DNA of 64,000 bases from an uncultured Phascolarctobacterium sp. (GTDB lineage: Bacteria; Bacillota; Negativicutes; Acidaminococcales; Acidaminococcaceae): assembly GCA_900545025.1 (NCBI GenBank), contig UQXH01000001.1, positions 55,206 to 119,205 of the forward strand. The letters are read 5' to 3'. The notes beneath the pieces were generated by a model. It was given only the letters and a program-made list of their open reading frames with translations. It had not been told where the DNA came from and did not search any database. Made by a program: the position numbers and the translations under genes. Shown here piece by piece: positions 24,236 to 43,738 of this stretch (positions are counted from its first letter, which is position 1; each line of letters begins with the position of its first letter).

Positions 24236-24259
24236 GAGTTTATTAAAGGAGTTGTGGCT

Positions 24260-25396: not shown

Positions 25397-25403
25397 GAGA
25401 AAT

Positions 25404-26890: not shown

Positions 26891-27961
26891 ATGCAGGCGG
26901 TTGTCTATTCCTTTTCACGGCGCGGAGCTGAGCTTAGTAAAAAAGTATGTGCGTGTTTAACAGCAGCAGGATATAATGCTGCAGCTCAAACTTTGCCTAA
27001 ATATGCAGCTGACGCTGGAATAGGAGTAATGCTGCCGGATTATAAAACTGCGTGTGCAGAAGCTTTTGACAAGTGCGGAATAATTGTTTTTGTTGGTGCG
27101 GCCGGAATAGCTGTGCGAACCATTGCTCCTTACATAAAAAGCAAACTGACTGATCCGGCAGTTATTTCTGTTGATGAAAAAGGTAATTTTGTTATACCTC
27201 TTTTAGCTGGTCATATTGGCGGCGCTAATGAGATAGCTCGTTATCTGGCTGAGTTTTTAGGGGGGATAGCTTGTGTAACAACAGCTACTGATGTTAATGG
27301 ACTATTTGCAGTAGATGAATGGGCAGCGCGTAATCGAATGACAATTGATTCTATGCATGCTGCTAAAGAATTTGCTGCTGCGCTTGTGGCAGAAGAGATT
27401 GTAGGTCTGACAAGTGAATTTCCTGTTGTAAGTGCATTGCCGAAAGGTATGCAGCTTTATGGGGAAGACAGCATTTTTCCTGTAGGTCTGAATATTGCTT
27501 TGAATACCAGCAATACTAAATTTGCAACAACACTTCATGTGCTGCCGCGTATTGTTCATCTTGGTATAGGTTGCAGACGCGGCACTGCATGCGCCAATAT
27601 TGCTGCACTTGTGCTGCCTGAATTAGAACGATTGCATATAGATAAACGTTCTGTCTGCAGCATAGCTTCTGTTGATTTGAAAAAAGATGAACAGGGATTG
27701 CTGGAATTTGCTGCAGTTAATGGGTGGCAGGCTAATTTTTATACAGCGGATGAACTCAATGCTGTTGCGGGTGAATTTACATCTTCGGCCTTCGTTAGAG
27801 GTATAGTAGGTGTAGATAATGTCTGTGAACGCAGTGCAGTGAAGGACAGTAACGGCGGAAGCCTGCTGTTGCATAAGACCAGTAAAAATGGTGTAACATT
27901 AGCGGTAGCTGTAGAAGATATAGTTATAGATTTTTTTAAGACAGGTTTAAAAACTGAGTAA
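26891..27961 (+). CDS. cbiG: Cobalt-precorrin-5A hydrolase
   Basis: 356 aa with CbiG N- and C-domains (LGIGCRRG). Conserved position between cbiF and cbiH. Confidence 0.8.
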   Translation: MQAVVYSFSRRGAELSKKVCACLTAAGYNAAAQTLPKYAADAGIGVMLPDYKTACAEAFDKCGIIVFVGAAGIAVRTIAPYIKSKLTDPAVISVDEKGNFVIPLLAGHIGGANEIARYLAEFLGGIACVTTATDVNGLFAVDEWAARNRMTIDSMHAAKEFAAALVAEEIVGLTSEFPVVSALPKGMQLYGEDSIFPVGLNIALNTSNTKFATTLHVLPRIVHLGIGCRRGTACANIAALVLPELERLHIDKRSVCSIASVDLKKDEQGLLEFAAVNGWQANFYTADELNAVAGEFTSSAFVRGIVGVDNVCERSAVKDSNGGSLLLHKTSKNGVTLAVAVEDIVIDFFKTGLKTE

Positions 27962-27983
27962 ATAATAAGGATGGTTATTATAT

Positions 27984-28715
27984 ATGTCTAAATTGTATGT
28001 TGTTGGCCTCGGTCCTGGCGGCGTTGAACAAATGACTAAAAGAGCTTATGAAGCGCTGCAGTCCTGTGACGTTATCGCAGGTTATCATGTTTATGTTAAT
28101 CTGATTAAGGAAGATTTCAAGGAAAAAGAATTTCTTTCTACCGGTATGCGTAAGGAAGTAGATCGCTGCAAGCTGGCTCTTGATGAAGCACTTAAAGGTA
28201 AAACTGTTGCCATGATTTCCAGTGGTGATGCTGGTGTTTATGGCATGGCTGGCATTATGTTTCAGGTTGCTGCAGATCACCCTGAAGTGGAAATCGAGGT
28301 TGTTCCTGGCATTACAGCAGCTTGCTCTGGCGCAGCTGTACTTGGTGCTCCGCTTATCAGCGATTTTTGTCTTATCTCTTTAAGCGATTTGCTTACTCCG
28401 TGGGAAAAAATTGAAAAAAGACTGGATTGTGCATCTCAAGCTGATTTTTGCATCTGTCTTTACAATCCTTCCAGCATCAAACGTCATGATTATCTGCAAA
28501 AAGCTTGTGATATTATGTTGAAAAATCAAAATGGCGATGTTCCTGCAGGCATTGTACGCAATATTGGTCGTGAAGGTGAAAGCTACGAATTAACTACTCT
28601 GCGTGAGCTGCGTGATAAACAAGTAGATATGTTCTCTACCGTTATTATCGGTAACTCTCAAACACAAGTTATTAACGGCCGTCTTGTTACTCCGCGTGGT
28701 TATAAACTGGTATGA
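27984..28715 (+). CDS. cbiH: Cobalt-factor III / precorrin-3B C17-methyltransferase
   Basis: MSKLYVVGLGPGGVEQMTKRA is the tetrapyrrole methylase fold. 243 aa. Confidence 0.8.
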   Translation: MSKLYVVGLGPGGVEQMTKRAYEALQSCDVIAGYHVYVNLIKEDFKEKEFLSTGMRKEVDRCKLALDEALKGKTVAMISSGDAGVYGMAGIMFQVAADHPEVEIEVVPGITAACSGAAVLGAPLISDFCLISLSDLLTPWEKIEKRLDCASQADFCICLYNPSSIKRHDYLQKACDIMLKNQNGDVPAGIVRNIGREGESYELTTLRELRDKQVDMFSTVIIGNSQTQVINGRLVTPRGYKLV

Positions 28716-29485
28716 AACCGGTAATTTGGATTATTGGCGGTACCAGTGAGGGACGTAATCTTTTAAAAGCTTTGGCAAGTTTTAATCTTGATATTTACGT
28801 TTCTGTTGCTACAGAGTATGGGGCAGAACTTATTGATAAACAGGATAACGTTAAAGTAATGGCTTCAAGAATGGATTTGGCAGCAATGAGAGAATTTCTG
28901 CAGATTCATCGTCCGGAATGCGTTATTGATGCTACTCATCCCTATGCAACAGTGGTAACGGCAACTGTCAAAGAAGCTTGTGCTTTAGAAGATTGTAAGT
29001 ATTTACGTTTATTGCGTCCTTCAAGTGAAAGCGGCGATTATATTACTGTAAGTGACTTTGGTGAAGCAGTTGAGTTGCTTAACCATATGGATGGTAATAT
29101 TTTTCTGACTACCGGCAGTAAGAACCTTAAAGATTTTACTGCTGTCAGAGATTATGCGGAACGTATAGCGCTACGTATCCTGCCAATGGAAGAATCATTG
29201 CATACAGCACTGCAGCTTGGTTATAAACCAGCTAATGTAATTTGTATGCAGGGTCCTTTTTCTAAGGATTTGAATATTACTATGTTAAAAAAATATCGTA
29301 GCAAATTCATGGTAACGAAAGATTCCGGTGCAGCAGGCGGTTTTGATGATAAAGTTGAAGCAGCGGCAGAAGCTGGAGCAAAACTGTTGGTGATTGGTCG
29401 TGAGCCGGAAGAAGGTTCAGGTTACAGTGAAGTATTAAATTATTTGTATCAGCAATATGCGGATACTCGAGTTTCTAAAAATTAA
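28712..29485 (+). CDS. cbiJ: Cobalt-precorrin-6A reductase
   Basis: MKPVIWIIGGTSEGR is the CbiJ/CobK N-terminus. 257 aa. Confidence 0.8.
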   Translation: MKPVIWIIGGTSEGRNLLKALASFNLDIYVSVATEYGAELIDKQDNVKVMASRMDLAAMREFLQIHRPECVIDATHPYATVVTATVKEACALEDCKYLRLLRPSSESGDYITVSDFGEAVELLNHMDGNIFLTTGSKNLKDFTAVRDYAERIALRILPMEESLHTALQLGYKPANVICMQGPFSKDLNITMLKKYRSKFMVTKDSGAAGGFDDKVEAAAEAGAKLLVIGREPEEGSGYSEVLNYLYQQYADTRVSKN

Positions 29486-29497
29486 GGAGTGCTGATT

Positions 29498-30712
29498 ATG
29501 CTGCGAGTTAATATTGTAGGTATCGGACCAGGAAATCCTGAATTACTTACAGGCGCTGCAATAAAAGCTATTAAGGAAAGTAATATCCTTATCGGCGACA
29601 AAAGGATGCTGGCAGCATTTGCTGAAGCAGATAAAAAAATTTACGACACTATCAAGACTGCGGATATAGTAGAAATTGCAGCGTCGGCTAATCCTGAAAA
29701 AGATGTTCTTGCAGTGCTTGTATCAGGTGATGTTGGCTTTTTCAGCTTAGCTAAAACCATCAGCGGGAAATTGCCTGATTGTGAATGTGTACGTTACTGT
29801 GGTATCAGCAGTCTGGTATATTTTGCAGCAAAATTGCAGATGGCATGGGATGATGCAAAAATTGTCAGCATGCATGGCAGAAAGCAGAATTTGATTGCGG
29901 CTGTAGCAGAAAATCAAAAAGTATTTTCTCTTACTGGCGGCGAGCATACGCCACAAATGTTGTGTGCACGACTTTGTGAACATGGCTTGGATGATGTACA
30001 GGTATATGTTGGTGAGAATCTTTCTTACCCGGAAGAAAAGATTACTGTTGGTACTGCTGCAGAAATCAGCAAACAGACTTTTCCTTCACTGTCTGTCATG
30101 ATGATTATCAATGAACAGGCAGCAAAGTACCAGCCAGTTGTGCATGGCCTGGCTGATGAATTATTTACCCGCAGCAAGGTACCGATGACTAAACAGGAAG
30201 TGCGCAGTGTTTCCATGTCTAAATTGATGCCGAAAGCAACCGACAAGATTTATGACATTGGTGCCGGTACCGGTTCATGTTCTGTCGAGCTGGCGTTATT
30301 AGCTAATAAAGGGCGCGTATGGGCTTTTGAACGTAATCCGGAAGCTGTAGCGCTTATTCATAAAAACAGAGACTTGTTTGGTATCGAAAATTTAGAAGTA
30401 ATTGCCGGAGAAGCTTTAGAAAATATTAAGAATATGCCTGCACCTGATTGCGTTTTCGTCGGCGGCAGCGGCGGCGATTTATGCGAAATGCTGGATATCA
30501 TTTATACAAAAAATCCTGATTGTCGTGTGGTTATTAACGCTATAACTATCGAAACGCTGGCAGAAGTTGCTGATTATTATAAAAAGCATCAGGATTATGC
30601 TTTAGAAATTGTCAATGTCTGTGTTGCACGCAGCCGTAAACTTGGCAGCTATAATCTGATGATGGCACAGAATCCCGTATATGTTATGACTGCTTTGAAG
30701 AAGGTTGATTAA
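29498..30712 (+). CDS. cbiET: Fused cobalt-precorrin-6B C5,C15-methyltransferase / decarboxylase (CbiE-CbiT)
   Basis: N-terminal tetrapyrrole methylase (VNIVGIGPGNPELLT). C-terminal class-I SAM MTase domain (KIYDIGAGTGSCS). ATG at 29498 is 9 nt after AGGAG. Confidence 0.8.
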   Translation: MLRVNIVGIGPGNPELLTGAAIKAIKESNILIGDKRMLAAFAEADKKIYDTIKTADIVEIAASANPEKDVLAVLVSGDVGFFSLAKTISGKLPDCECVRYCGISSLVYFAAKLQMAWDDAKIVSMHGRKQNLIAAVAENQKVFSLTGGEHTPQMLCARLCEHGLDDVQVYVGENLSYPEEKITVGTAAEISKQTFPSLSVMMIINEQAAKYQPVVHGLADELFTRSKVPMTKQEVRSVSMSKLMPKATDKIYDIGAGTGSCSVELALLANKGRVWAFERNPEAVALIHKNRDLFGIENLEVIAGEALENIKNMPAPDCVFVGGSGGDLCEMLDIIYTKNPDCRVVINAITIETLAEVADYYKKHQDYALEIVNVCVARSRKLGSYNLMMAQNPVYVMTALKKVD

Positions 30713-30713
30713 A

Positions 30714-32078
30714 ATGGCTGAATTACAAGTTCCTCGGATAATGATAAGTGCTCCTGGCAGCGGCAGCGGCAAGACCACTATTGTATGCGGTCTTTTAAAT
30801 GCACTGATGAATATGGGCTTTAAAACTGCAGCTTTTAAATCCGGCCCAGATTATATTGACCCGATGTTTCATTCTAAAGTCATTGGAGCAAAGTCAAGAA
30901 ATCTTGATTTATTTATGCTTGGAGAGGAAACAACCAAATATTTAGCAGCAAAAAATTCTTGTGATGCGGATATTGCCGTTTTTGAAGGTGCAATGGGCTT
31001 TTATGACGGTATGGGGAAAACATTGGAAGCAAGCGCTTATAAACTTGCCTGTACCTGTGATGTACCTGTAATATTGGTTGTTAACGGCAAAGGAGCGGCT
31101 TTATCTTTAGCAGCACAAATTAAAGGTTTTAAAGATTTTCGTCCTGATAGTCATATTGTGGGAGCTATTATCAATAATGTTAATCCTATGAGCTATATGT
31201 TCTATAAGGATGTTATAGAACGTGAGACAGGAGTTAAGCTGATAGGTTATTTTCCGATTATGGCTGACTGCAATTTTGAAAGCAGGCATCTTGGCCTTGT
31301 AACAGCTGAAGAAATTGGCGATTTGCAGTCCATAGTTGATAGACTTGCTGCACAAGCTGCCAAATCTATTGATATGGAAGCATTATTAGAAATTGCACGA
31401 AAAGCTTGTCCTTTGCAATATGAGGAGCAGAATATAGAGTCTATTGGAAAAGTGCGTATTGCAGTAGCACAAGATAAAGCTTTTTGTTTCTATTATCAGG
31501 ATGCTCTGGATTTACTCTCTGAACTTGGTGCAGAGCTTGTTCCGTTTAGTCCGCTTAATGACAAATATTTGCCGGAAAACTGTCAGGGAATAATCCTTGG
31601 CGGCGGCTATCCTGAAATCTACGCTCAACAGCTTGCTGATAATCACACTATGCTGGAAAGTATTCGCGAGGCTGTGCTGCAAGGAATGCCCTGTTTTGCT
31701 GAATGCGGCGGGTTTATGTATTTGCTGGAACGTTATTGTGAAGGCGATAAAATTTATTCATGGGTAGGAGCCGTAGAAGGCGAAACGAGCATGACCAAAA
31801 AGCTTAATCGTTTTGGTTATGTACATCTTACTGCTCAGCATGATAATATGCTCTGCTGTAAAGGTGAAATGATTAACGGACATGAGTTCCATTATTCTGA
31901 CAGCTGCAATAACGGCAGCAGCTTTTTGGCAGAAAAGGCTTCCGGAAAAGGAGCTTGGCACTGTGCTCATGCAGGAAAAACTCTTTATGCCGGGTATCCG
32001 CATATACATTTATGGGGAAATCCTGAGTTTGCACGCAATTTTGTTAAATGCTGCTGTGAATATAAACAAGAAAAATAA
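30714..32078 (+). CDS. cbiA: Cobyrinate a,c-diamide synthase
   Basis: ISAPGSGSGKTT P-loop. C-terminal glutamine amidotransferase domain (CFAECGGFMYL). First ATG after the cbiET stop. Confidence 0.85.
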   Translation: MAELQVPRIMISAPGSGSGKTTIVCGLLNALMNMGFKTAAFKSGPDYIDPMFHSKVIGAKSRNLDLFMLGEETTKYLAAKNSCDADIAVFEGAMGFYDGMGKTLEASAYKLACTCDVPVILVVNGKGAALSLAAQIKGFKDFRPDSHIVGAIINNVNPMSYMFYKDVIERETGVKLIGYFPIMADCNFESRHLGLVTAEEIGDLQSIVDRLAAQAAKSIDMEALLEIARKACPLQYEEQNIESIGKVRIAVAQDKAFCFYYQDALDLLSELGAELVPFSPLNDKYLPENCQGIILGGGYPEIYAQQLADNHTMLESIREAVLQGMPCFAECGGFMYLLERYCEGDKIYSWVGAVEGETSMTKKLNRFGYVHLTAQHDNMLCCKGEMINGHEFHYSDSCNNGSSFLAEKASGKGAWHCAHAGKTLYAGYPHIHLWGNPEFARNFVKCCCEYKQEK

Positions 32079-32107
32079 AAAGCCCATGGGCTAAGGGGAC
32101 TTTGTTT

Positions 32108-33076
32108 ATGATGACATTAGCTGCCATTACGGCAGGTTTTATCTTGGACCTTCTTTTTGGAGATCCCCATTGGCTGCCGCATCCTATTTGCCTGATAGGT
32201 AATTTAATAGGTTTTCTGGAAAAAAATCTGCGCAAAATTTTTGCGTTTAGTAATATAGCACTTTTAATAAGCGGCAGTTTTATGGTACTGATAGTTTTAT
32301 TATGTACCTATTTGATTCCGTATTTCATTTTGCAGGAAGCTGAAAAAATCAGCATTTGGCTGGCATTTGCTCTGGAGACATTAATGTTTTACCAGATATT
32401 TGCTACTAAATGCTTGCGTGATGAAAGCATGAAGGTTTTTGATGCGCTGCAGAAAGGTGATTTGGCTGATGCCAGAGTCAAATTGTCATGGATTGTAGGC
32501 AGAGATACCAAAAATCTGACTAGTGAAGAAGTAACTAAGGGTGCAGTCGAAACTGTTGCAGAAAATACTGCAGATGGAGTAATTGCTCCGATGTTCTATA
32601 TGTTTATCGGTGGGGCTCCACTTACTTTTTTATACAAAGGAATCAATACCATGGATTCTATGGTAGGTTATAAAAATGATAAATATCTGTATTTTGGCAG
32701 ATGTGCTGCTAAATTAGACGATTTAGCTAATTTTATTCCGGCACGTATTTCAGGTATGGTTATGATGCTGGCAGCATATTTTCTTAACCTTGATAGCAAG
32801 CAGGCGTGGAAAACATTCTGGCGTGACAGATATAATCATTTAAGCCCTAATTCTGCTATGACAGAGTCTGTTGCTGCAGGTGCGCTGAATATCCAGCTTG
32901 GCGGCGGTCATTTTTATTTTGGGAAATGGGTTCCTAAAGATACTATAGGCGATGATATCAGACCGGTAGTGGCTGAAGATATTGTTGCAGTGAATAATTT
33001 ACTATATATGTCAGCTGTAATAAGTATTTTATTTTTTGCATTAATATATTTGCTTAAAATATTTATAGCAGCCTGA
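32108..33076 (+). CDS. cbiB: Adenosylcobinamide-phosphate synthase
   Basis: Membrane protein LAAITAGFILDLLFGDPHWLPHPICLIGNLIGF is the CbiB/CobD-family signature. ATG at 32108 is 7 nt after AAGGGGAC. Confidence 0.85.
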   Translation: MMTLAAITAGFILDLLFGDPHWLPHPICLIGNLIGFLEKNLRKIFAFSNIALLISGSFMVLIVLLCTYLIPYFILQEAEKISIWLAFALETLMFYQIFATKCLRDESMKVFDALQKGDLADARVKLSWIVGRDTKNLTSEEVTKGAVETVAENTADGVIAPMFYMFIGGAPLTFLYKGINTMDSMVGYKNDKYLYFGRCAAKLDDLANFIPARISGMVMMLAAYFLNLDSKQAWKTFWRDRYNHLSPNSAMTESVAAGALNIQLGGGHFYFGKWVPKDTIGDDIRPVVAEDIVAVNNLLYMSAVISILFFALIYLLKIFIAA

Positions 33077-33095
33077 TTTCAGAGGATGGGAAGTT

Positions 33096-34184
33096 ATGTA
33101 TACTTACGTTCATGGTGGGGATATTTATACTCAGAAGCAAACTGCAGCTGGTAAAGACATGATTGATTTTTCAGCAAATATCAATCCCCTGGGCTTGCCT
33201 GCGGGTGTTAAAACTGCTATTAAAACTGCTATTAAAAAATGTGTAAATTATCCTGACCCGTTTTGCCGTGAGTTGACGCAGGCAACAGCTGATTTTCTGC
33301 ATATAGATAAAGAATGGCTGTTTTTCGGTAATGGTGCTGCTGATGTACTTTTCCGACTGGCACTGGCGATAAAGCCTAAGAAAGCATTGCTTTTGGCACC
33401 AACATTTGCTGATTATGAAAAAGCATTGCGTTCTGTTGATTGCGGCATAAGCTACTACAATTTACCCAGCAAGCATGAATTTATTGTGCAAAAGGATATT
33501 TTGCGCCGTATTACGACCAGGACAGATATAGTAGTTATCTGTAATCCTAATAATCCTACCGGTCAGCTGACTGACAGAAGCTTGCTTGAACATATTCTTG
33601 CAAAGTGTAATGAAGTAGGCGCCTATCTGTTGCTTGATGAATGTTTTATGGATTTTGTTGATGAAGATAAAGCATTCAGTATGCGCGATGTACTGGCTGC
33701 TAATCACAGATTGATTATTCTCAAAGCGTTTACCAAGACTTTTGCTATTCCTGGTGTAAGGCTTGGGTATTGTATGAATGCAGATGCTGCTTTATGTAAG
33801 GCTTTGCACGAAAGCGGTCAGGACTGGAGTGTTTCTGTCTTAGCGCAGGAAGCAGGCTGTGCGGCTTTGCAGGAAAAAGAATATTTAAATGAATCTTATA
33901 TACTGATCAAAGAAGAACGTCAGTATCTTATAAATCAGCTGAAAGCCTTGGGAGCAGAAGTATATGGCTCCCATGCAAACTACATATTTTTCTATATGGA
34001 AAAACCAGCTCAGCTTAAGGAATTACTGTATCAACAGGGATATATGATTCGTTCCTGTGCCAATTACCATAATCTGGGTGAGGGTTATTACAGAATCGCG
34101 GTAAAAACAAGGGTGCTGAACCGTGGTCTTATTAAAGCAATTAAGGAAGCAAGAAAAAATGCGCTCATTACTGGTACTTATTGA
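33096..34184 (+). CDS. cobD: L-threonine-O-3-phosphate decarboxylase (class I/II aminotransferase fold)
   Basis: PLP-lysine region (KAFTKTFAIPGVRLGY). Size (362 aa) and position between cbiB and cbiP typical of CobD. Confidence 0.75.
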   Translation: MYTYVHGGDIYTQKQTAAGKDMIDFSANINPLGLPAGVKTAIKTAIKKCVNYPDPFCRELTQATADFLHIDKEWLFFGNGAADVLFRLALAIKPKKALLLAPTFADYEKALRSVDCGISYYNLPSKHEFIVQKDILRRITTRTDIVVICNPNNPTGQLTDRSLLEHILAKCNEVGAYLLLDECFMDFVDEDKAFSMRDVLAANHRLIILKAFTKTFAIPGVRLGYCMNADAALCKALHESGQDWSVSVLAQEAGCAALQEKEYLNESYILIKEERQYLINQLKALGAEVYGSHANYIFFYMEKPAQLKELLYQQGYMIRSCANYHNLGEGYYRIAVKTRVLNRGLIKAIKEARKNALITGTY

Positions 34185-35286
34185 TGGTTTAGGTGATGAA
34201 CCAATTCCTGACTGGAAAGGGCTTACACCTTTTCAGAGGGCACAACATAATAACATAGATAAATTACTGGACGGAAAAGTTGCAGCAGAAATTTCTATTT
34301 GTGGAAATGATATTATACCAGAAAGCTGCAGTTGTATTCTGCGCCTATTAGGGGTGAAGAATAACTATATTCCACGAAGCCGTTCCTATTTGGAATTGCT
34401 TGCGCATAACAGAGATATTTCAGAATTTGAAATGGTACTCAGATGCAACCTTGTAGCTGTCAATGAGCATAATATTATGACTGCCTTCAACGGAACAGGA
34501 CTGAATATTGTAGAAATGCAGAAAGCTGCTGCGGTATGCAATGATATTTTAAAAGAAATAGAGTTTATCCATTTGTCTGAATATCGTAATCTGATGATTT
34601 TAAACAGAGAGCAACAGGTATTAAGCTGTCATGTTCCGCCGCCACATGAAAATGTAGGTGAAAATATTTATTTTTTGCTTACAGAGCTGATGCAAAATTC
34701 GCTGGCTATGAAATATTTTCTGGAAGTTGCAGAACAAAGATTGCAGAAATTCAGCAGAAACGGTCTGAGATATATGCTGTATCCGTGGGGAGCTGCTGAC
34801 AGATGTGTGCTGCCGTCTTTTTTTGAGCTGCACCATGTAAAGGGAGCTGCAGTATGCAAAGCAGAAATTGTCGCCGGTATTGCTACAGCACTTGGTATGC
34901 AGGTAGAAATTCCTGCTAATGCTACCGGTGATATCGATACTGACATAGAGGCTAAAACAACTTCTGCGCTTAATCTGTTACAGGACAATGATTTTGTGAT
35001 AGCCCACTTTAACGGCAGTGATGAAGCTTCTCATCGATATGATGCTGAAGGCAAGCTGCATTTTATTGAAAAAATTGACGAATATTTTCTCGGCAGGATT
35101 ATGCAGGAGTATCATGAGCCTTTACGAATAGTTGTCTGCGGCGACCATGTAACCAGTTCTGTAAGTGGCAAGCATGGTCGAGGCGCAGTACCCGTAGTTG
35201 CAGGCAGCATAAATTGCAGCGCCCAAGATATCGATATCAATTCCTATAAAGAAATACTAAACTTTTTGATGAGAGAGAGTGATTGA
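34159..35286 (+). CDS. Alkaline-phosphatase-superfamily protein resembling archaeal-type cofactor-independent phosphoglycerate mutase (ApgM-like), embedded in the B12 operon
   Basis: N-terminus [15 protein letters not shown] resembles the ApgM-type MxxxLxIxDGxGD start. ~375 aa. Translationally coupled between cobD and cbiP. Confidence 0.55.
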
Positions 35287-35287
35287 T

Positions 35288-36808
35288 GTGGCAAAAGCTA
35301 TAATGGTACAGGGAACAATGTCTAATGCAGGTAAAAGCCTGGTAACTGCCGGTTTGTGCCGTGTATTTAATCAGGATGGTAAAAAAGTAGCTCCGTTTAA
35401 ATCACAGAATATGGCTTTAAACTCCTTTATTACCAAAGAAGGAGCTGAAATGGGTCGTGCGCAGGTAGTACAGGCTGAAGCAGCTAACATTGAACCCAGC
35501 GCCTTAATGAATCCTATCCTGTTAAAGCCTACAAGTGACAGCGGCTCTCAGGTAATCGTGAACGGCGAAGCTATTGGTACCATGACTGCTGCTGAATATT
35601 TTAAATTCAAGACTAATCTCATTCCTGATATAATGAAAGCTTACAATCAGCTTGATGCAGCTTATGATGTCATTGTGCTGGAAGGTGCAGGCAGCCCAGC
35701 AGAAATCAATCTTAAAACTCAGGATATAGTAAACATGGGTATGGCTAAAATGGCCAAAGCTCCTGTATTATTGGTTGCTGACATTGATCGCGGCGGTGTA
35801 TTCGCTTCTATCTATGGCACTTTGATGTTGATGGATGAAGATGAACGTGCCATGGTTAAAGGCGTTATCATTAATAAATTCCGTGGTGATGTTGATATTC
35901 TGCGTCCTGGTCTGGACATGATTGAAGCAAAGACAGGAGTGCCTGTTGTGGGCGTTCTGCCGATGCTGCATATAGATATAGAAGATGAGGATAGTCTTTC
36001 TGAAAGACTGACAGCACATACTGAAGTTAAATTGGTGGATATAGCTGTTGTCAGAATCCCGCGTATGTCCAACTATACAGACTTTAATGTATTTGAACTG
36101 ATTCCCGGAGTATCACTGCGTTATGTAACTTCCGTAAAAGAACTTGGCACCCCGGATATGATTATTATTCCTGGTACAAAGAACACTATCGGTGACTTGA
36201 AATGGCTGCGTCAAAGCGGACTTGAAGCTGAAATTAAGAAAAAAGCCAGCGAAGGTACAGTTATTTTCGGTGTATGCGGCGGCTATCAGATGTTAGGTAA
36301 AAATATCTCTGATCCCTATGGCGTAGAAGAAGGCGGAGATACTCCTGGTATTGGTCTTTTGGATGTAGAGACAATCTTTGCAGAGAAAAAACGTACTATC
36401 CAAATGTCTGGAAAATTTGCTGCAGTGCAGGGTATTTTTGCTAATTTGAGTGATAAACCTTTGGTTGGTTATGAAATTCACTCCGGTGTAACAAATTTTG
36501 CTGCTGAAAATGCTATGACTGAGATTAAGCCTATTCATGAGGCTGGCGAAGCAATGCTGGAAGGTTCGCAAAATGTTACCGAAAAAATAAATGTTTACGG
36601 TACATATGTACATGGCATTTTCGATGGTGACGGAATTGCCGCTGCAGTTGTGGAAGCATTGCTGGCGAAAAAAGGCCTGAAAATGGAAGATATAAAAACT
36701 GTTAATTTTGCTGATTATAAAAAACAGCAATACGATATTCTGGCCGACAGTATCAGAAAGAATTTAGATATGGAAAAAATTTATGCTATATTGGAAGCAG
36801 GTGTCTAA
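35288..36808 (+). CDS. cbiP: Cobyric acid synthase
   Basis: With the GTG start at 35288 the N-terminus reads (M)[16 protein letters not shown], the CobQ/CbiP consensus. C-terminal GATase (GVCGGYQML). Confidence 0.85.
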
Positions 36809-37339
36809 ATGAAAGACGGCGGCCTGATACATATATATTGCGGTGACGGTAAAGGCAAAACAACAGCTGCTGTAGGTTTAGCTGTGCGTTGCAGTGGACA
36901 TGGTAATAAGGTATTGCTGGTGCAGTTTTTGAAAAGCAGGCCTACCGGAGAGCTTAAATCACTTGCTTTACTGCCAGGTATCGAAATATTGCGCGGCAAA
37001 GAGAATAATAAATTTACTTTTCAGATGACTGTGGAGGAAAAGGCTGTTGTATTGAAAAATCATATGGACTTATTTGCCAAGGTCCAAGGAAAATGCCTGC
37101 AGGATAAAATAGATTTGCTTATTTTAGACGAGGTTATCGGAGCCTGCAATACCGGTGTTTTTGAATTAGAGGCTTTGCTTAAATTTTTACAAAACAAACC
37201 GCAAGAACTGGAAGTTGTGCTTACAGGACGTAATCCTGCTGCTGAATTAGTTGAGCTGGCAGATTATGTATCAGAAATCTGTAAGCGTAAACATCCTTTT
37301 GATAAAGGTATCCCGGCAAGAACCGGGGTAGAAAGGTAG
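36809..37339 (+). CDS. cobO: Cob(I)yrinic acid a,c-diamide adenosyltransferase (CobA/BtuR/CobO type)
   Basis: GLIHIYCGDGKGKTTAAVGLAVR P-loop. 176 aa. Confidence 0.8.
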   Translation: MKDGGLIHIYCGDGKGKTTAAVGLAVRCSGHGNKVLLVQFLKSRPTGELKSLALLPGIEILRGKENNKFTFQMTVEEKAVVLKNHMDLFAKVQGKCLQDKIDLLILDEVIGACNTGVFELEALLKFLQNKPQELEVVLTGRNPAAELVELADYVSEICKRKHPFDKGIPARTGVER

Positions 37340-37348
37340 GTTATTTAA

Positions 37349-37978
37349 ATGCAGTTGCAAAATGTGTTGCCTGCGGATATTGAAAACCGCAGCATGGAAA
37401 TTATCGGTGAAGAACTTGGTGAAATTAAGCTTGATCCTGAAAAAATCGATATTGTAAAACGTGTAATCCATACATCTGCTGATTTTGATTATGCACGTAC
37501 TTTGCATTTTTCTGAAGGCGTTGTAGAAAAAGCACTTACTGCATTAAAAAATGGTGCAACCATTGTTACTGATACTAATATGGCTTGTACAGGTATCAAT
37601 AAAATGGGTTTGAACAAGCTTGGGGCAAAAGCAGTTTGCTTTATGGCTGATGCCGATGTGGCTGCCCGTGCTAAAGAGGCTGGCTCTACAAGGGCGGCTG
37701 CCTGCATGGAAAAAGCTTGCAGTATTGAAGGGCCTGTTATTATTGCGGTAGGTAATGCCCCAACAGCTTTAGTACGTCTTGACGAATTGGTAAAAGAAGG
37801 AAGAATTAAACCTGAACTTGTTATTGGTGTACCCGTAGGCTTCGTCAATGTAGTAGAATCCAAAGAAATTATCATGAAAACAGGAATCCCTTATATTGTT
37901 GCACGTGGCCGTAAAGGCGGCAGTAATGTTGCTGCAGCCATCTGCAATGCGCTTATTTATAAATTAACCAGAAAATAG
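37349..37978 (+). CDS. cbiC: Cobalt-precorrin-8 methylmutase
   Basis: 209 aa CbiC/CobH-like (IVKRVIHTSADFDY...VIGVPVGFV). Confidence 0.8.
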   Translation: MQLQNVLPADIENRSMEIIGEELGEIKLDPEKIDIVKRVIHTSADFDYARTLHFSEGVVEKALTALKNGATIVTDTNMACTGINKMGLNKLGAKAVCFMADADVAARAKEAGSTRAAACMEKACSIEGPVIIAVGNAPTALVRLDELVKEGRIKPELVIGVPVGFVNVVESKEIIMKTGIPYIVARGRKGGSNVAAAICNALIYKLTRK

Positions 37979-38015: not shown

Positions 38016-38035
38016 AATCTCTGTTAACTGATTAT

Positions 38036-38111
38036 TCCCCGATAGTTCAGCCGGTAGAACACCTGACTGTTAATCAGGGCGTCGTAGGTTCGAGTCCTAC
38101 TCGGGGAGCCA
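38036..38111 (+). tRNA. tRNA-Asn (anticodon GTT), CCA encoded
   Basis: Acceptor tccccga/tcgggga. Anticodon loop ctGTTaa. T-arm ggttcgagtcc. Discriminator G then CCA. Confidence 0.9.
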
Positions 38112-38212: not shown

Positions 38213-39340
38213 TTAACCGGAAATCTCATAAATCTTGGCTACCTGATCGGCGACCATCTTATCCATATTTGGTATTGCGTGGCCATATAAATTGAGTGTA
38301 TGTGATGGCTTGGAATGGCCAAGTCTTTTGCATACTTCAAGTAGCGGAACGCCGCCGGAAAGCAACTGAGTAGCATGCGTGTGTCTTAGGCAGTGAAACT
38401 TTTTATAATTTACTTCGGCACCTTTTAGTATTACAGACCAGGCACGGCGCATATTGGAAGGCAGAAATGGCGTTCCTGCACGCGTTCTGAACACATAATC
38501 CAGCTTATCCATATAAAGTATCTTGCCGGACTTTTTTAAGGCCAGCAGGGCTGCTGTAACGCGTTCAGGAATAGTAATATATCTGCGCCCTGCGGCAGTT
38601 TTGGTTGGCATGTCTTCAGGCGGTCTGCCTGGTAATGCCTGCAGGGTGGATACTATTTTGATTGTATTTTCTTTGGTATCTACATTTTTCCATCGCAGTG
38701 ACAGGAGTTCTCCTAACCTGGCACCCGTTGTTGCTGCCAAGAGAATGAAAGCATAATGCCGCCTTAATCTGGATGGGGTAGTGGGATTCTGCAGATAATC
38801 CAGAATCTTTTTAATTTCAGCCTGGGTAAATATCTCAACCTCTTCATGTGTAACCTTTGGCGGTTCAACAAGATCCATGAAGTTTTTGTTTATGATGCCT
38901 AGCATGTAGGCTTTTTTTACAGCGGCAGATAGAAGCTGGTAAATCTTATATTTGCTGCTGCTGGCCATGGTATCAGGCAGGCCATTTAAAAACCGTTGTA
39001 CGGTAAGATTAGCAGATTTTGCCTGCAGCGGCATATCAGCTATTGGCTCTATGTGAGAGAAGGACTGCAGGTACTGCAGCTTAGATTTTGGCCGGAGATT
39101 TGCTTTGTACGTCTTGATCCACTCAATGATCCAGTCGGAGATGGTCATATCATTGGGGGCAACATAGGTATCACGGGCAAACTGAGAGCGTATATCAGTC
39201 AGCCAGTCTTTTGCTTCTTCACGGGTGTTGAAGCGTTTGAAGAGTCTCTGACCGTATGGATCAGTAATTGCTGCTCTGTATTTGTTACGTTGTTTATCGA
39301 AGTAAACAGTTCCTTCGCCATTTTCACGTTTTTTAGGCAT
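38213..39340 (-). CDS. int: Phage tyrosine integrase (site-specific recombinase)
   Basis: 375 aa. C-terminal catalytic residues in the context ...HCLRHTHATQLLSGGVPLLEVCKRLGHSKPSHTLNLYGH. N-terminal SAM-like domain. Adjacent to the tRNA. Confidence 0.9.
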   Translation of the reverse strand: MPKKRENGEGTVYFDKQRNKYRAAITDPYGQRLFKRFNTREEAKDWLTDIRSQFARDTYVAPNDMTISDWIIEWIKTYKANLRPKSKLQYLQSFSHIEPIADMPLQAKSANLTVQRFLNGLPDTMASSSKYKIYQLLSAAVKKAYMLGIINKNFMDLVEPPKVTHEEVEIFTQAEIKKILDYLQNPTTPSRLRRHYAFILLAATTGARLGELLSLRWKNVDTKENTIKIVSTLQALPGRPPEDMPTKTAAGRRYITIPERVTAALLALKKSGKILYMDKLDYVFRTRAGTPFLPSNMRRAWSVILKGAEVNYKKFHCLRHTHATQLLSGGVPLLEVCKRLGHSKPSHTLNLYGHAIPNMDKMVADQVAKIYEISG

Positions 39341-39511
39341 AAAAAATCAGCTCCTTTACTTATTTTGGGTATAAGGTAGCAGAGCTGATTAAATCATGTT
39401 ATAATTAAATAGATAATCAGCCTGCTGTGGTAGGTGGGTAGGTTATATAGCAGTAATTGTTGGTAGCTTTTACTGCACGTCCCTCGGTGTTGGTAGCACC
39501 GGGGGATTTTT

Positions 39512-40723
39512 TTATTGTTCTGTTTTAAACATTAATAAATTTAACTTATAATACTTAACCCTGTTATTCGTTGAAACAATAATATGTTCTTTTGGCAAAG
39601 AGTCTAATCTATTTTTTATTGTTCCTTTAGATTTTTCTGATAGTTTTACCAATTCAGTCATTGATATTCCTTGCCCATAGAATAAAGCAGCTTGTAACAA
39701 AACATAATAAATGTTTGCAAGAAGCGTATCATGTGAAGCAATTTCATTTATTTTCTTTTTATATATTTCTATTTGAGATTTTTTACGAGTTAAAATATTT
39801 ATTGTGTCGTTAAACGTATCAAGCAGGAGATTAAGAAAACCAATTATAAAAGGTGTCATATCACCACGGTTTAATTCACTGTCAGCTTCTGAAAAGAGTG
39901 CATAATATTTTGCTCTGTTTTTCTTTATTAATACTGATAATCGTAATGCTGCTATTTTATGAAAATGTTTAGAAAGATAGTATGAAGTAATAAACCTGTC
40001 TGTTCTACCATTTCCGTCATAAAAAGGGTGAATGTAGGCAAATAGATAGTGAAATAAGCTAATTCTAATAAGAAAAGGTAAATTGGGATTATTTAGTATA
40101 TTTAAAGTAGATTCTACTGCTTCTATAATTTTTGACTCAGGCACAATACCTCGATGAATGGTTTTTCCGGATGCGGAAGCTACGTCAACAGGTTCCAATC
40201 TAAAAATAGTTCCATCAAGAGCATTTTCGGGTTTTTCTGCAATTACTTCTTTGTGAGCAAAATCATCATAAAAATCTCTTATATCTTGACATGTTTCAAA
40301 CTTAATTTCAGTATCGCTTAAAAGACTGTGGTATTTATTTACTACACTTGCAAACCGAGCATTATGTGGAGCAGTACCGTCAATTATATCTCTAAGTTCT
40401 TTTCTTGTACTATGCACACCTTCGATATCATTAGTAGATTTTACTTCTTCTAATATTGATAATAGTGAAAATTGGTGCAGTACTACAGGTGGGACAGAAT
40501 GTATTACATATAGAAAGTTTTCGTAGGCTTTGTAGATTTTTTCTATTAACAATACTATATTTTCAGAGTAGTTAAAAAAAGCTGGATAAGAATTTCTATG
40601 ATTGTATTGTTTTATTATAATGTCTAAATGCTGTACAAAAGGTGAGTTATAACGTTTTTGGTATTCAGCCTCATGCAAATTTTCGTTTTTATAATAAATT
40701 TTTGTCAGGCTATCGTATGTCAT
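39512..40723 (-). CDS. Fic-family AMPylase-like protein, class II (N-terminal inhibitory (S/T)xxxE(G/N) motif)
   Basis: Fic core motif HPFYDGNGRTDR exactly matches HxFx(D/E)GNGRxxR. Upstream TNDIEG fits the auto-inhibitory motif. 403 aa. Lies between integrase and repressor. Confidence 0.85.
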   Translation of the reverse strand: MTYDSLTKIYYKNENLHEAEYQKRYNSPFVQHLDIIIKQYNHRNSYPAFFNYSENIVLLIEKIYKAYENFLYVIHSVPPVVLHQFSLLSILEEVKSTNDIEGVHSTRKELRDIIDGTAPHNARFASVVNKYHSLLSDTEIKFETCQDIRDFYDDFAHKEVIAEKPENALDGTIFRLEPVDVASASGKTIHRGIVPESKIIEAVESTLNILNNPNLPFLIRISLFHYLFAYIHPFYDGNGRTDRFITSYYLSKHFHKIAALRLSVLIKKNRAKYYALFSEADSELNRGDMTPFIIGFLNLLLDTFNDTINILTRKKSQIEIYKKKINEIASHDTLLANIYYVLLQAALFYGQGISMTELVKLSEKSKGTIKNRLDSLPKEHIIVSTNNRVKYYKLNLLMFKTEQ

Positions 40724-40939
40724 AAATCCTCCTAAGTATCTTTTACAAAAAAGCTGAATTTTGAAAAAGACGTTTTTGTTTTTTACAAAAAAGCTGGATT
40801 TTGGAAAAGCGGGTAAAAATCGGCATAAGACTGGTCGATTTTTATAGGAAAAGCATAAATGAACTTAATCTACATTTTTATTTTTCTATAAACTGGTCGA
40901 ATTCGACCAGTTTATATTAGCTCCATCTAAGTGGAAAAA

Positions 40940-41311
40940 TTATCCTGCCGCATTTTGTGTAGCTTTATTTGTGGATTTTTGGTTATCTAACTTTAGCTTT
41001 ATAATTCCGTCAATTTCTTTTTTATTGTTATCGTTTAATTTACGATAAATTTTTAGATGTTTAGTTTCCTGTTCGGTTAAAGAAATAGATGATATTGTAG
41101 GTGGAAACAAATCATTTATACTAATTTCTAAGGCGTTTGCAATTTTAAAAAGAATATCTTGTTCAGCTTCATTAGTTGCATTTTCGTATCCTGATACAGT
41201 ATTGTGTTTAACTCCAATTTTATTACCTAATTCTTTTTGTGTTAAACCTCGCATTTTTCGATATTCTCTTATTTTATTTGAAACATATTGTCTAATATCC
41301 ACATTTTTCAC
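40940..41311 (-). CDS. XRE-family HTH repressor (CI-like)
   Basis: HTH LTQKELGNKIGVKHNTVSGYENA. Divergent from the Cro-like gene. Confidence 0.8.
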   Translation of the reverse strand: MKNVDIRQYVSNKIREYRKMRGLTQKELGNKIGVKHNTVSGYENATNEAEQDILFKIANALEISINDLFPPTISSISLTEQETKHLKIYRKLNDNNKKEIDGIIKLKLDNQKSTNKATQNAAG

Positions 41312-41327
41312 CTCTTTTATTAACTAC

Positions 41328-41417
41328 ATAATACACGAAACAATGATGCTTTTCAAGAAAAATATTTCGTAAAACATGAAGAAAATTGTTGACATGGTTA
41401 CAAACTTCGAGTATTAT
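41328..41417. promoter_or_regulatory. Divergent lysogeny-switch promoters, both near-consensus: minus strand TTGAAA-17-TATTAT (41328-41356) and plus strand TTGACA-17-TATTAT (41389-41417)
   Basis: Hexamers and spacers read directly from the sequence. They sit back-to-back between the repressor and cro-like genes. Confidence 0.7.
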
Positions 41418-41439: not shown

Positions 41440-41667
41440 ATGCAAGTTTTACTTGAATCAATAAGACGAGCGAATAAAGAAAGTCAAGAAAGTATAGCTA
41501 AATTAATTGGTGTAGATGTTAGAACTTATCAGAATAAGGAAAAAGGGATTACTCAATTCAAACAGAATGAAATGTTCTTAATTGCTAAACATTTTAATAA
41601 AAAGATTGATGAAATTTTTTTACCTACAAACTTCGAGAATCAAGAAGTTTGTAGTACGAAAAAGTAA
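41440..41667 (+). CDS. XRE-family HTH protein (Cro-like)
   Basis: 75 aa with an HTH (IAKLIGVDVRTYQNKEKG). RBS AAGGAGG. Confidence 0.75.
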   Translation: MQVLLESIRRANKESQESIAKLIGVDVRTYQNKEKGITQFKQNEMFLIAKHFNKKIDEIFLPTNFENQEVCSTKK

Positions 41668-41690: not shown

Positions 41691-41885
41691 ATGCGTAGAT
41701 TTGGATGGAAAAACAAAAGCCAACCGTCAGAAACGATTGGCTGGTGGAAAATAAAATGCAATTATTGTGGGGAAAATATAGTATTTATTCTAAATCCTAA
41801 AACACTAAGGTTTCACAACAATAAAAGAATAAGAGCTTTTTTGAAATCATATACGGCACATAAAGTAGTTAAGCAAAAGAGATGA
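41691..41885 (+). CDS. Small hypothetical phage protein (single CxxC)
   Basis: ATG 41691 lies 6 nt after GGAGGTGA. Its 3' end overlaps the convergent minus-strand gene by ~38 nt. Confidence 0.45.
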   Translation: MRRFGWKNKSQPSETIGWWKIKCNYCGENIVFILNPKTLRFHNNKRIRAFLKSYTAHKVVKQKR

Positions 41886-42407
41886 AATGGGTGCAGTAAT
41901 CCAAGAATTTTTCTGCATTATTCCAGAAAATTTAGATAACATCCCTGGCTTGCAGTTCCCGCTATTGAGATTAGTTTTTAATGTATCAATTAGTTCTTGA
42001 AAATCTTCTCTTTTTGCACCATTAGCAGAGATTACCTTGTACAAATCGTCAACAGAAGCACATTGATAAATACTTGAAGAATTTGGACCAAAGGCTGAGC
42101 CATAAGCATTATTAACATTAAAAATAAAGTTTTGATTTTCTTGTGCAGTTGGCTTAGTTCCTTCTACATGAATGAAGTCTATTTCACCACCCATTATAGT
42201 TGGTTCTTTTGTTATGTCAGTAACGATAAACTCAAAACCTGTTATGTCAGATTTAATAATATCGTTTATTTGAACATCACAATTATATGGCAAGTCTGCG
42301 GAATATTTATCGTGGTATAAACCTGTTACTGTAGCAATCTTTGTACCGTTTCTAAAAATAGAGTATTTTTTTCCTGCATTATAAACTAAATCATCAAATA
42401 TACGCAT
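41847..42407 (-). CDS. Orphan hypothetical protein with its own promoter, oriented against the phage early operon (candidate moron)
   Basis: 186 aa. Perfect RBS AAGGAGGTG 7 nt upstream of the ATG. Minus-strand promoter ATGACA-17-TATAAT at 42433-42461. No recognisable motifs. Confidence 0.7.
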   Translation of the reverse strand: MRIFDDLVYNAGKKYSIFRNGTKIATVTGLYHDKYSADLPYNCDVQINDIIKSDITGFEFIVTDITKEPTIMGGEIDFIHVEGTKPTAQENQNFIFNVNNAYGSAFGPNSSSIYQCASVDDLYKVISANGAKREDFQELIDTLKTNLNSGNCKPGMLSKFSGIMQKNSWITAPISSLLLNYFMCRI

Positions 42408-42505
42408 CTCAGCACCTCCTTTCTTTGATTAAATTATAACAGTAGATGTTCAATTTGTCATAACAATAAAATCCTACCGTATGGCAGGGCAGTGGAGGTG
42501 AGGAT

Positions 42506-43000: not shown

Positions 43001-43738
43001 ATGAATGATTTATTAAAAATTGAAGTAAACAGTAATCAGGAACAGACCGTAAGCGGCAGAGAGCTGCATATGTTTTTAGGGATAGAAACTCGATACAATG
43101 ATTGGTTTAATCGTATGCTGCAATATGGGTTTGAAGATGAAAAAGACTTTTACTCAATTTTGAGTAAAACTTCTGAAAATGGCAGACCGAGCACTGACCA
43201 CATCATGAAGTTGGACATGGCTAAAGAGCTCTGCATGCTGGCCCGTAACGAAAAAGGCAAACAGGCCCGCCAATACTTTCTTGAAGTGGAGAGGGAGTGG
43301 AACAGCCCGGAAAAAGTAATGGCCAGAGCGTTGAAGTTGGCTGAAGCCAAGCTGAATGAAGTTAAGGCGTTTGCTGCTGAACAGACTAAACAGCTGGAAG
43401 CAGCTCAGCCAAAAGTTGTTTTCGCGGATGCTGTAGCAACAGCACAAACCTCAATCCTTATTGGTGATCTGGCCAAAATCCTTAAGCAGAATGGCGTCAA
43501 CACCGAACAGAAACGCCTGTTTGAGTGGATGCGCCAAAACGGTTATCTTATCAAGCGAAAAGGTGCAGACTATAATAGCCCAACTCAAAGAGCTATGGAG
43601 CAAAAATTGTTTGAAATCAAAGAAACGTCCGTAGCCATGCCGGATGGTGGTATTAAAATCACACGCACCACAAAGGTTACCGGCAAAGGCCAGATCTATT
43701 TTGTCAACTTGTTCAAAAAACAGAGTAATGCGGGGTGA
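43001..43738 (+). CDS. ant: Phage antirepressor (ORF6N/Rha-like N-domain + KilA-C/ANT C-domain)
   Basis: N-terminus VSGRELHMFLGIETRYNDWFNRM (ORF6N-like). C-terminus NGYLIKRKG...TQRAMEQKLF (ANT/KilAC-like). Confidence 0.7.
   Translation: MNDLLKIEVNSNQEQTVSGRELHMFLGIETRYNDWFNRMLQYGFEDEKDFYSILSKTSENGRPSTDHIMKLDMAKELCMLARNEKGKQARQYFLEVEREWNSPEKVMARALKLAEAKLNEVKAFAAEQTKQLEAAQPKVVFADAVATAQTSILIGDLAKILKQNGVNTEQKRLFEWMRQNGYLIKRKGADYNSPTQRAMEQKLFEIKETSVAMPDGGIKITRTTKVTGKGQIYFVNLFKKQSNAG

Follow-up and report, generated by a model that had tools for sequence, protein, structure and literature searches.

The open reading frame at 39512-40723 (minus strand) of a 64,000-nucleotide (nt) stretch of DNA from an uncultured Phascolarctobacterium sp. 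(contig UQXH01000001.1, positions 55,206 to 119,205; the whole stretch is called the window below) almost certainly encodes an intact, constrained class II Fic protein that ends in a winged helix-turn-helix (wHTH) domain, the architecture of SoFic, CccR, and CbFic2, as judged from its sequence and a structural model. The gene, which we call fic, lies in a prophage between an integrase gene and a repressor gene, exactly where an earlier note on this DNA had placed it, and comparison with related loci (designated here by L numbers) makes it very probable that fic is moron-type, exchangeable cargo in a hypervariable slot. It is preceded by tandem dyads spaced by whole helical turns, through which the Fic protein probably regulates its own synthesis, a proposal that draws on sequence and on analogy with characterized relatives.

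The Fic protein and its predicted domains

The protein contains a single match to the Fic pattern H.F.[DE]GN[GK]R..R, HPFYDGNGRTDR at residues 232-243 (H232-PFYDGNGRTD-R243), and, N-terminal to it, a single match to the inhibitory pattern [ST]xxxE[GN], TNDIEG at residues 97-102 (T97, E101, and G102). A lone match to the second pattern could by itself be due to chance. We found that 52 homologs of 55-92% identity all retain E101, G102, and the Fic motif in full, and that TNDIEG aligns with TSAIEG, the experimentally defined inhibitory helix of Coxiella Fic2 (CbFic2; alignment with Protein Data Bank entry 8cil; PMC10628234). The invariance of E101 and G102 and the alignment with the CbFic2 helix together indicate that TNDIEG is not a mere chance match.

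An AlphaFold2 (AF2) model built from a 52-sequence alignment had a mean predicted local distance difference test score (pLDDT) of 92.5 and a predicted template-modeling score (pTM) of 0.90. It has the alpha-helical Fido fold, and Foldseek matched it with a probability of 1.00 to more than 40 Fic structures. The model aligned over its full length with SoFic (3eqx, 3zec, and 3zcn; about 360 aligned columns, TM scores of 0.56-0.65), and the other full-chain matches were 4rgl, CbFic2 (8cil), 7xux, and a mycobacterial Fic protein; its C terminus matched the MarR-type wHTH domain of 4l9j. The parts of the protein suggested by the model are these:

Residues 1-53: N-terminal extension of two helices and a beta-hairpin (AF2)
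Residues 54-76: helix, probably for dimerization, which aligns with the CbFic2 interface
Residues 79-101: helix that bears the inhibitory motif TNDIEG (AF2)
Residues 290-328: long linker helix that follows the Fic core (AF2)
Residues 333-399: wHTH, with helices at 333-346, 355-362, and 366-375 and a beta-wing at 381-394 (AF2)

The motif invariance, the CbFic2 alignment, and the model with its Foldseek matches bear out the earlier note's description of the product as a class II Fic protein, with its inhibitory helix in cis, TNDIEG as the inhibitory motif, and an intact active site. The C-terminal winged-helix DNA-binding domain had been overlooked, and it makes the protein a bifunctional one of the SoFic/CccR type. 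The whole chain appears to be under constraint: in comparison with the 92%-identical relative at L001, the ratio of nonsynonymous to synonymous substitution rates (dN/dS) was 0.09, and it was even across the N terminus, the Fic core, and the wHTH domain.

Family models place the protein near SoFic. Pfam Fic (PF02661) matched residues 179-250 with 45.7 bits (cutoff, 24), the PADLOC SoFic model PDLC03963 matched residues 86-393 with an E value of 1.7e-33 (model positions 53-350 of 361; a match to a single-gene system), and phrog_5978, whose function is not annotated, matched with 6.7e-39. By sequence, the closest solved structures were 4rgl, Coxiella Fic2 (8cil), and SoFic. Several results weigh against too close an identification: the NCBIfam SoFic equivalog NF046030 scored 51.7 bits, over residues 209-374 only, against a cutoff of 550; Pfam at E values of 0.01 or below returned nothing except Fic, with neither DUF4172/Fic_N nor the SoFic C-terminal family among the matches; and identity is only 18-20% to SoFic and about 20% to any tested protein. 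Because the equivalog cutoff is failed, the protein is SoFic-like but is not a SoFic ortholog.

The cargo slot between repressor and integrase

The genes that define the slot lie on one strand, with fic between the repressor gene and the integrase gene (int), next to a tRNA gene:

38036-38111, plus strand: tRNA-Asn (GTT), the integration site and left prophage boundary (ARAGORN; Rfam tRNA model, 69.3 bits)
38213-39340, minus strand: tyrosine integrase, 375 residues (Pfam Phage_integrase, 9.4e-26)
39512-40723, minus strand: fic, 403 residues, ATG start
40940-41311, minus strand: CI-like, Xre-family repressor, 123 residues (Pfam HTH_3, 9.9e-16; PHROG transcriptional repressor families)

Among close relatives of the protein (76-99% identity), the gene order is always repressor, fic, recombinase, and the partners on both sides vary. 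A tyrosine integrase fills the recombinase position in the window, L005, and L220, whereas L001 and L003 have a large serine recombinase there; on the repressor side lies the 123-residue HTH_3 protein, a 30%-identical allele, or a 373-residue protein with helix-turn-helix (HTH) and M78 domains. Several of the fic-bearing relative prophages occupy the window's own cbiC/tRNA-Asn site, and the recombinase gene of the sibling loci is adjoined by an identical tRNA-Asn sequence. As a separate observation, nucleotides 8902-8979 of L003, a prophage with a serine recombinase, are 100% identical over 78 nt to window positions 38034-38111, which contain the same tRNA-Asn, indicating that two classes of recombinase use one chromosomal site by cbiC.

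We sampled the slot through exact-protein look-ups of integrases in the same 90% cluster. These integrases sit at the same cbiC/tRNA-Asn site with differing cargo genes upstream:

L231-L233: Fic
L225-L227: KilA-N
L230: SWIM protein and Mrr_cat nuclease
L234: deaminase
L228 and L229: genes without assigned function

All of the alternative cargos rejoin the window sequence at 39512-39520. In L225, the exchange has left a trace. This locus shares 97.6% identity with window positions 42500 through 40677, a stretch that takes in the repressor gene, the palindrome and dyads described below, the ribosome-binding site (RBS), and the first 16 codons of fic; at 3640-3700 of L225, the fic remnant of 16 codons runs into a stop codon, a KilA-N gene fills the slot, and similarity to the window returns at a hairpin by the fic stop codon. 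By sequence comparison, L225 is a natural derivative in which fic has been lost and replaced. Among the loci that retain fic, shared DNA similarity starts at the dyads (window positions around 40791-40809), and the dyads and the RBS travel with the gene; with the rejoining point at 39512-39520, this defines the cassette as dyads, RBS, and fic.

Viral sequence collections agree with this position. We found 191 IMG/VR contigs that encode relatives of the Fic protein, and we compared the gene contexts in 25 non-redundant IMG/VR loci. A recombinase gene lies no more than two genes downstream of fic in 11 of the 23 loci that include downstream genes, and an Xre HTH gene lies no more than two genes upstream in 8 of the 25 (four with an S24 domain and three with M78). 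In some of the remaining viral loci, fic lies beside lysis genes at the other end of the prophage, the position of ORF56 in phage TP901-1. The gene order of the window recurs in an isolated phage, Faecalibacterium phage Aster, as orf30-Fic-integrase. A search of IMG/VR for relatives of the integrase itself gave only two marginal matches. The GC content is 29.4% in fic, 40.9% in the host flank, and 43.8% in the rest of the prophage, and the neighboring immunity genes are as AT-rich as fic.

One survey weighs against generalizing from this position. Among 77 species-representative genomes, only six homologs have a recombinase gene immediately downstream, indicating that the broad family is not restricted to phages; for this reason, the case for a moron is built on the close relatives and the viral contigs. 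We nevertheless regard the status of fic as exchangeable cargo as very secure, and the replacement of cargo beside integrases of one cluster, together with the L225 remnant, bears out the earlier note's placement of the gene as a moron between integrase and repressor.

The junction between fic and int contains two further elements:

39397-39514, plus strand: candidate small RNA (sRNA), about 105 nt long and antisense to the fic-int junction, with three stem-loops
39345-39390, minus strand: inverted repeat AATCAGCTC-N28-GAGCTGATT, whose 3' arm covers the integrase RBS; part of the integrase module, not of fic

The candidate sRNA (predicted extent, 39411-39514) would be transcribed from an extended -10 box, TGTTATAAT at 39397-39405; the form TGnTATAAT is conserved in five loci, and n is its only variable base. 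Its predicted fold has a free energy of -44.2 kcal/mol (z score, -4.9), with no Rfam match. In a terminator scan, its terminator hairpin fell at 39479-39507, with a T7 run behind it, directly against the fic stop codon, and this hairpin is also the right-hand boundary of the cargo slot. The element is retained with the integrase module whatever the cargo, and with tyrosine and serine recombinases alike. The same post-fic hairpin (AAAAAATCCCCCGGTGCTACC..., 39479-39507) is doubled in siblings, with one copy behind each cargo unit (3889-3944 and 4823 onward in L225; 3923-3955 and 4825 onward in L226), and it is the exact junction of the alternative cargos with the integrase module. Cassettes may be exchanged by recombination that recurs at this boundary. 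At the place of the inverted repeat, the serine-recombinase loci L001 and L003 carry arms ACCAGCCTT/AAGGCTGGT, which amounts to compensatory change. The preservation of the structure through compensatory changes suggests that a hairpin over the recombinase RBS exerts translational control of the integrase and is conserved across recombinase types.

Dyads and palindrome upstream of fic

The region between fic and the repressor gene contains these elements:

40728-40733, minus strand: RBS AGGAGG, 4 nt before the ATG, invariant in six aligned loci
40739-40770: proximal dyad, in the fic sense TCTTTTTCAAAA-TTCAGCTT-TTTTGTAAAAGA, with 12-nt arms that match at 11 of 12 positions; it ends 15 nt before the ATG
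40779-40810: distal dyad, 40 bp from the proximal copy, degenerate, with arms that match at 9 of 12 positions
40830-40838: third half-site of the palindrome, the 9-mer ACTGGTCGA, as ACTGGTCGATTT at 40830-40841, in the fic sense preceded by TCCTATAAAAA; in the immunity-side intergenic region
40887-40916: perfect 30-bp palindrome, with halves TATAAACTGGTCGAA and TTCGACCAGTTTATA; its start is 24 nt beyond the stop codon of the repressor gene

The earlier note had described a 27-bp imperfect direct repeat here. The repeat is real and is a fic-linked control element, but it is 29 nt long, with 27 of 29 positions identical between 40741-40769 and 40781-40809, 40 nt apart. Its unit is a dyad, GTCTTTTtCAAAA-N7-TTTTGtAAAAGAC in the window and arm-AAAA-N6-8-TTTT-arm across the family. 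In an alignment of upstream regions, the two-copy repeat is kept in every close locus, and its sequence varies among loci with both copies changing together.

We scanned the 150 nt upstream of fic for a 12-nt arm ending in A3-4, a spacer of 4-10 nt, and a complementary arm. At least one such dyad was present in 57 of 101 non-redundant loci, compared with 3.1 of 101 (maximum, 7) when the upstream regions were shuffled and with 63 of 6733 (0.94%) among other 150-nt windows of the same loci. The A-tract is fixed at 5-8 nt from the dyad center, with a G/C-richer core inside and (C/T)T outward. Fifteen loci have two to four copies, and the spacing of the tandem copies clusters at 31, 40-41, and 51-52 bp, that is, at three, four, and five helical turns (multiples of about 10.3 bp). 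The 99%-identical sibling L220 has three copies where the window has two. In Lactococcus phage TP901-1 (L236, 2040-2200), four perfect or near-perfect 40-bp tandem repeats lie directly before the RBS of ORF56, each with the palindrome ATTTGATAAAATATCAAAT. In many loci, a dyad directly follows a TTGACA-17-TATAAT promoter or overlaps its -35 or -10 box. Grouping of the arms by sequence parallels the variants of the predicted recognition helix (residues 364-375).

The helical phasing, the overlap with promoters, the lineage-specific arms, and the fact that fic is the only constantly linked gene argue that the dyads are DNA operators bound by Fic, and we consider it probable that the protein regulates itself through them. 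Several points count against this reading. The distal dyad of the window is degenerate, shared ancestry confounds the grouping of arms with recognition-helix variants, no convincing sigma-70 -35/-10 pair for fic was seen on the minus strand from 40724 to 40940, and the suggestion that Fic itself occupies the dyads comes from linkage and from analogy. The gene may be co-transcribed with the repressor gene.

The dyads could instead work in the 5' untranslated region as RNA hairpins that affect mRNA stability or translation, or they could be sites for a different protein, such as a host factor or the repressor of the phage. In mRNA, an A/U-rich hairpin can arise from each dyad, and in the window both dyads are placed between the RBS and a possible promoter farther upstream. 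Against this, spacings of 31, 41, and 52 bp reflect a property of duplex DNA and not of RNA, and a dyad that overlaps the -35 or -10 box, as in many loci, would not be transcribed. The arms vary by lineage, the type of repressor varies independently of them, fic is the sole constant neighbor, and there is direct precedent for an operator in CccR and SoFic (PMC9755527; bioRxiv 10.64898/2026.07.09.737422). We therefore judge this alternative to be quite unlikely.

The earlier note had instead proposed as an operator a perfect 26-bp palindrome at 40877-40902. The palindrome is real; the 26-mer lies at 40889-40914, an offset of 12 nt, and it is part of the perfect 30-bp palindrome at 40887-40916. 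This sequence is unique in the window (none is expected by shuffling) and could form a hairpin with a 13-bp stem (-21 kcal/mol; z score, -4.9), and the 9-mer half-site occurs three times, against 0.15 expected. As an operator of fic, it would have in its favor that it is perfect and statistically exceptional, that it lies about 165 nt upstream of the gene with the third half-site 50 nt closer, and that copies of its core elsewhere lie between a TATAAA box and an RBS, an operator-like position. Its distribution points the other way. L220 and L225, whose repressor is that of the window, both contain the palindrome, which is unchanged in L225 although fic has been deleted there; L001, L003, and L005, which have fic with its dyads and other immunity regions, lack it. 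The similarity shared by fic cassettes starts at the dyads, downstream of the palindrome, and about half of the exact copies of the core in IMG/VR, in unrelated phage contexts, lie inside KilA-N genes. We conclude that the palindrome is an element of the immunity region and not of the fic cassette, and that a role as the operator of fic is improbable.

Other functions can be considered for the palindrome. Its hairpin is strong, but neither strand has the U-tract of an intrinsic terminator, and the lack of an additional copy in the repressor-cro intergenic region, even with two mismatches allowed, led us to reject it as a CI/Cro operator. A search for further copies elsewhere, which the earlier note had suggested for the prophage, returned 12 matches with up to two mismatches, no more than the chance level (12.2 expected). 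The 22-nt core AACTGGTCGAATTCGACCAGTT has 51 exact matches in IMG/VR (L169-L219); as the search was for exact matches only, these counts say nothing about conservation. Of these copies, 27 lie inside KilA-N genes (about 285 residues) and encode the self-complementary peptide KLVEFDQF, and the others are non-coding, several of them between a TATAAA box and the RBS of an amidase/lysin-like gene; L218 has two copies 53 bp apart. The core may be a widespread regulatory or recombination palindrome of phages. We also considered, and rejected, an origin of this palindrome from a former KilA-N gene: no KilA-N homolog is present in the window, the tblastn signal was limited to the nine-residue palindrome and a marginal extension (E = 0.03), and the KilA-N gene of L225 lacks the exact palindrome.

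Proposed function and the surrounding prophage

Because fic is co-oriented with the repressor gene and no intrinsic terminator precedes it, the gene would be expressed in the lysogen. We propose that a Fic dimer would bind the two helically phased dyads just upstream of the RBS and repress its own synthesis, which would keep a potentially toxic enzyme scarce, and that the latent AMP-transferase would be held off in cis by E101 of the TNDIEG helix, which would obstruct the ATP site. Relief of the auto-inhibition, for example upon infection by another phage, would lead to AMPylation of an essential host protein, possibly EF-Tu as for SoFic, or FtsZ, or GyrB/ParE. The resulting arrest of growth or translation would amount to an abortive-infection type of protection for the lysogen population.

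The closest precedent for these steps is SoFic of Shewanella oneidensis (SO_4266/MloA; PDB 3EQX, 3ZCN, and 3ZEC), which shares the N-terminal (S/T)xxxE(G/N) helix, the HPFx(D/E)GNGRxxR motif, and the C-terminal winged helix. SoFic binds as a dimer to the 100 bp upstream of its own start codon and attaches AMP to EF-Tu in its switch I region (bioRxiv 10.64898/2026.07.09.737422), and it has been reported as a single-gene defense system (bioRxiv 10.1101/2022.05.11.491447). The toxicity of EcSofic depends on its catalytic His and on dimerization (PMC12249575). Unlike SoFic, the protein of the window has about 50 additional N-terminal residues, including the beta-hairpin, its gene has no small AS1-like open reading frame downstream, and it is carried by a prophage of a Firmicute of the Gram-negative type.

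CccR of Yersinia pseudotuberculosis (YPK_0951) likewise is a class II protein that combines Fic with a C-terminal HTH; it AMPylates FtsZ, and as a dimer it binds an inverted repeat (palindrome) by that HTH and so represses its own promoter (PMC9755527). The dyads of the window are in the equivalent place upstream, but the CccR operator is a single copy with 10-bp arms 26 bp apart, whereas the arms here are about 12 bp long including an A4-5 tract, enclose a core of 6-8 bp, and occur in two to four phased tandem copies across the family. CccR is also an effector of a type VI secretion system, and fic has no secretion context. CbFic2 of Coxiella burnetii (8CIL) has the same Fic-wHTH layout and an N-terminal helix at its dimer interface, and its DNA binding modulates AMPylation and deAMPylation (PMC10628234); unlike the protein of the window, to which it is 19-20% identical, CbFic2 is an effector directed at eukaryotic histone H3, and its DNA binding is apparently non-specific.

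Phages also carry homologs. ORF56 of TP901-1, orf29 of Aster, and MloA of the Streptococcus 'Javan' satellite prophages belong to the same family (30-37% identity) and lie at prophage ends, that of Aster next to the integrase gene and that of TP901-1 behind a 40-bp tandem array directly before its RBS. Their dyad sequences and spacers differ from those of the window, and ORF56 is at the lysin-proximal end of its genome.

Taken as a whole, the account of an autoregulated class II Fic-wHTH cargo gene that serves in defense is the one we favor, with some reserve. Its weakest step is the anti-phage or exclusion role, which is suggested by analogy and which we hold only tentatively. The PADLOC match is weak evidence for defense: SoFic-model matches are reported in about 94% of Bifidobacterium genomes (bioRxiv 10.1101/2025.01.20.633837), so that the model evidently also catches housekeeping Fic-wHTH proteins.

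Instead of a defense toxin, the protein could chiefly be a transcription factor that reversibly AMPylates and deAMPylates and that regulates the physiology of the lysogen or of the host. By adjusting translation, division, or functions of the prophage (integrase expression, for example), it would act as a lysogenic-conversion factor and not in abortive infection. SoFic constitutively deAMPylates EF-Tu and has been proposed to be a dual transcriptional and translational regulator (bioRxiv 10.64898/2026.07.09.737422), and CccR is a gene regulator besides being a toxin (PMC9755527). In addition, int directly follows fic on the same strand, no terminator in that orientation comes between them, and the family is common at chromosomal sites outside phages. 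However, the cargo of the slot is interchangeable and includes obvious defense or nuclease genes (Mrr_cat and the deaminase), prophages such as L225 do well without fic, which argues against a core role in the control of lysogeny, and the dyad motif occurs only upstream of fic, with no wider regulon in the window. A mainly regulatory role is thus unlikely, although it fares better than the other alternatives to our account.

Addiction is a classic role of Fic and Doc toxins, and fic might likewise stabilize the prophage by post-segregational killing, as Doc/Phd or class I FicT/FicA modules do, with an antitoxin that is intramolecular or labile, such as the adjacent sRNA. A structured candidate sRNA does abut the fic stop codon, and EcSofic requires the small downstream antitoxin AS1 (PMC12249575). 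However, the fic strand between fic and int has no open reading frame of 20 codons or more and thus no AS1-like antitoxin gene, and the 216-bp region upstream of fic contains only repeats and no open reading frame for a partner antitoxin. We also rejected the candidate sRNA as a Fic-specific antitoxin, because it belongs to the integrase module and stays with it regardless of cargo. The toxins of the class I FicT/FicA and Doc/Phd pairs likewise have the Fido fold, are borne by mobile elements, and modify GyrB/ParE or EF-Tu, but in these pairs a separate antitoxin gene supplies the helix and there is no wHTH domain; with its helix in cis and no partner open reading frame, the protein of the window belongs to class II and not to class I. 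As a natural fic-deleted sibling occupies the same site, loss of the gene is tolerated, and we give addiction little credence.

A more speculative extension of our account, prompted by analogy and to our minds a long shot, is that occupancy of the operator array by Fic dimers sets the AMPylation/deAMPylation state of the protein, a control exerted in CbFic2 by DNA binding and in SoFic by dimerization, and that superinfection triggers the toxin when the DNA of the incoming phage, say, or the replication of operator copies titrates Fic off its operators. If this were true, the protein would sense infection through its binding to DNA and would by itself make up an abortive-infection system in which a silent repressor turns into a toxin.

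Beyond the repressor gene, the prophage continues with these genes:

41440-41667, plus strand: Cro-like HTH protein (Pfam HTH_3, 2.4e-7), divergent from the repressor gene; start of the early lytic operon
43001-43738: AntA/KilAC antirepressor, following the Cro-like gene

A sigma-70-like promoter, TTGACA-17-TATTAT at 41389-41417, precedes the Cro-like gene. The tRNA-Asn that adjoins the integrase gene puts the left end of the prophage at about 38.1 kb, and the right end is outside the window. An Rfam scan of 37.9-43.1 kb returned only the tRNA, and weak matches of microRNA models on the palindrome and the dyads are due to chance. A 186-residue open reading frame at 41847-42407 (minus strand) runs against the direction of the early lytic operon in an AT-rich block at 39-43 kb. 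It matches phrog_21028 (5.5e-14) with no Pfam or PADLOC match, and it has a 47%-identical homolog in L205, about 1.4 kb from a KilA-N gene that bears the palindrome; it is a candidate for a second moron. The host flank at 24254-37978 is a cobalamin-biosynthesis cluster that ends at the tRNA-Asn and is intact despite the insertion of the prophage; by comparison with annotated sibling loci, its genes include CobQ/CbiP-like (35279-36808), CobO-like (36809-37339), and CbiC-like (37349-37978). The nearest named homologs come from Phascolarctobacterium, Dialister, and Acidaminococcus, which makes the host a gut Negativicute.

Prophage-borne SoFic-like genes are routine in defensome surveys (e.g., PMC11883136), and both such genes and their autoregulatory logic are known already, so that the finding is otherwise an ordinary one. 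Fic-wHTH genes are among the commonest matches in defense censuses, and their trigger, their targets, and the true frequency of defense among them are poorly known. To this, our analysis adds a family-wide operator architecture, a documented cassette slot, and a natural deletion sibling, the fic-deleted prophage L225, which offers a natural comparison for the hypotheses of autoregulation and defense. The dyad architecture is the one result that generalizes: it provides a directly testable putative operator in many phages, including TP901-1, and it could help annotation to tell self-regulated mobile Fic cassettes from housekeeping Fic genes.

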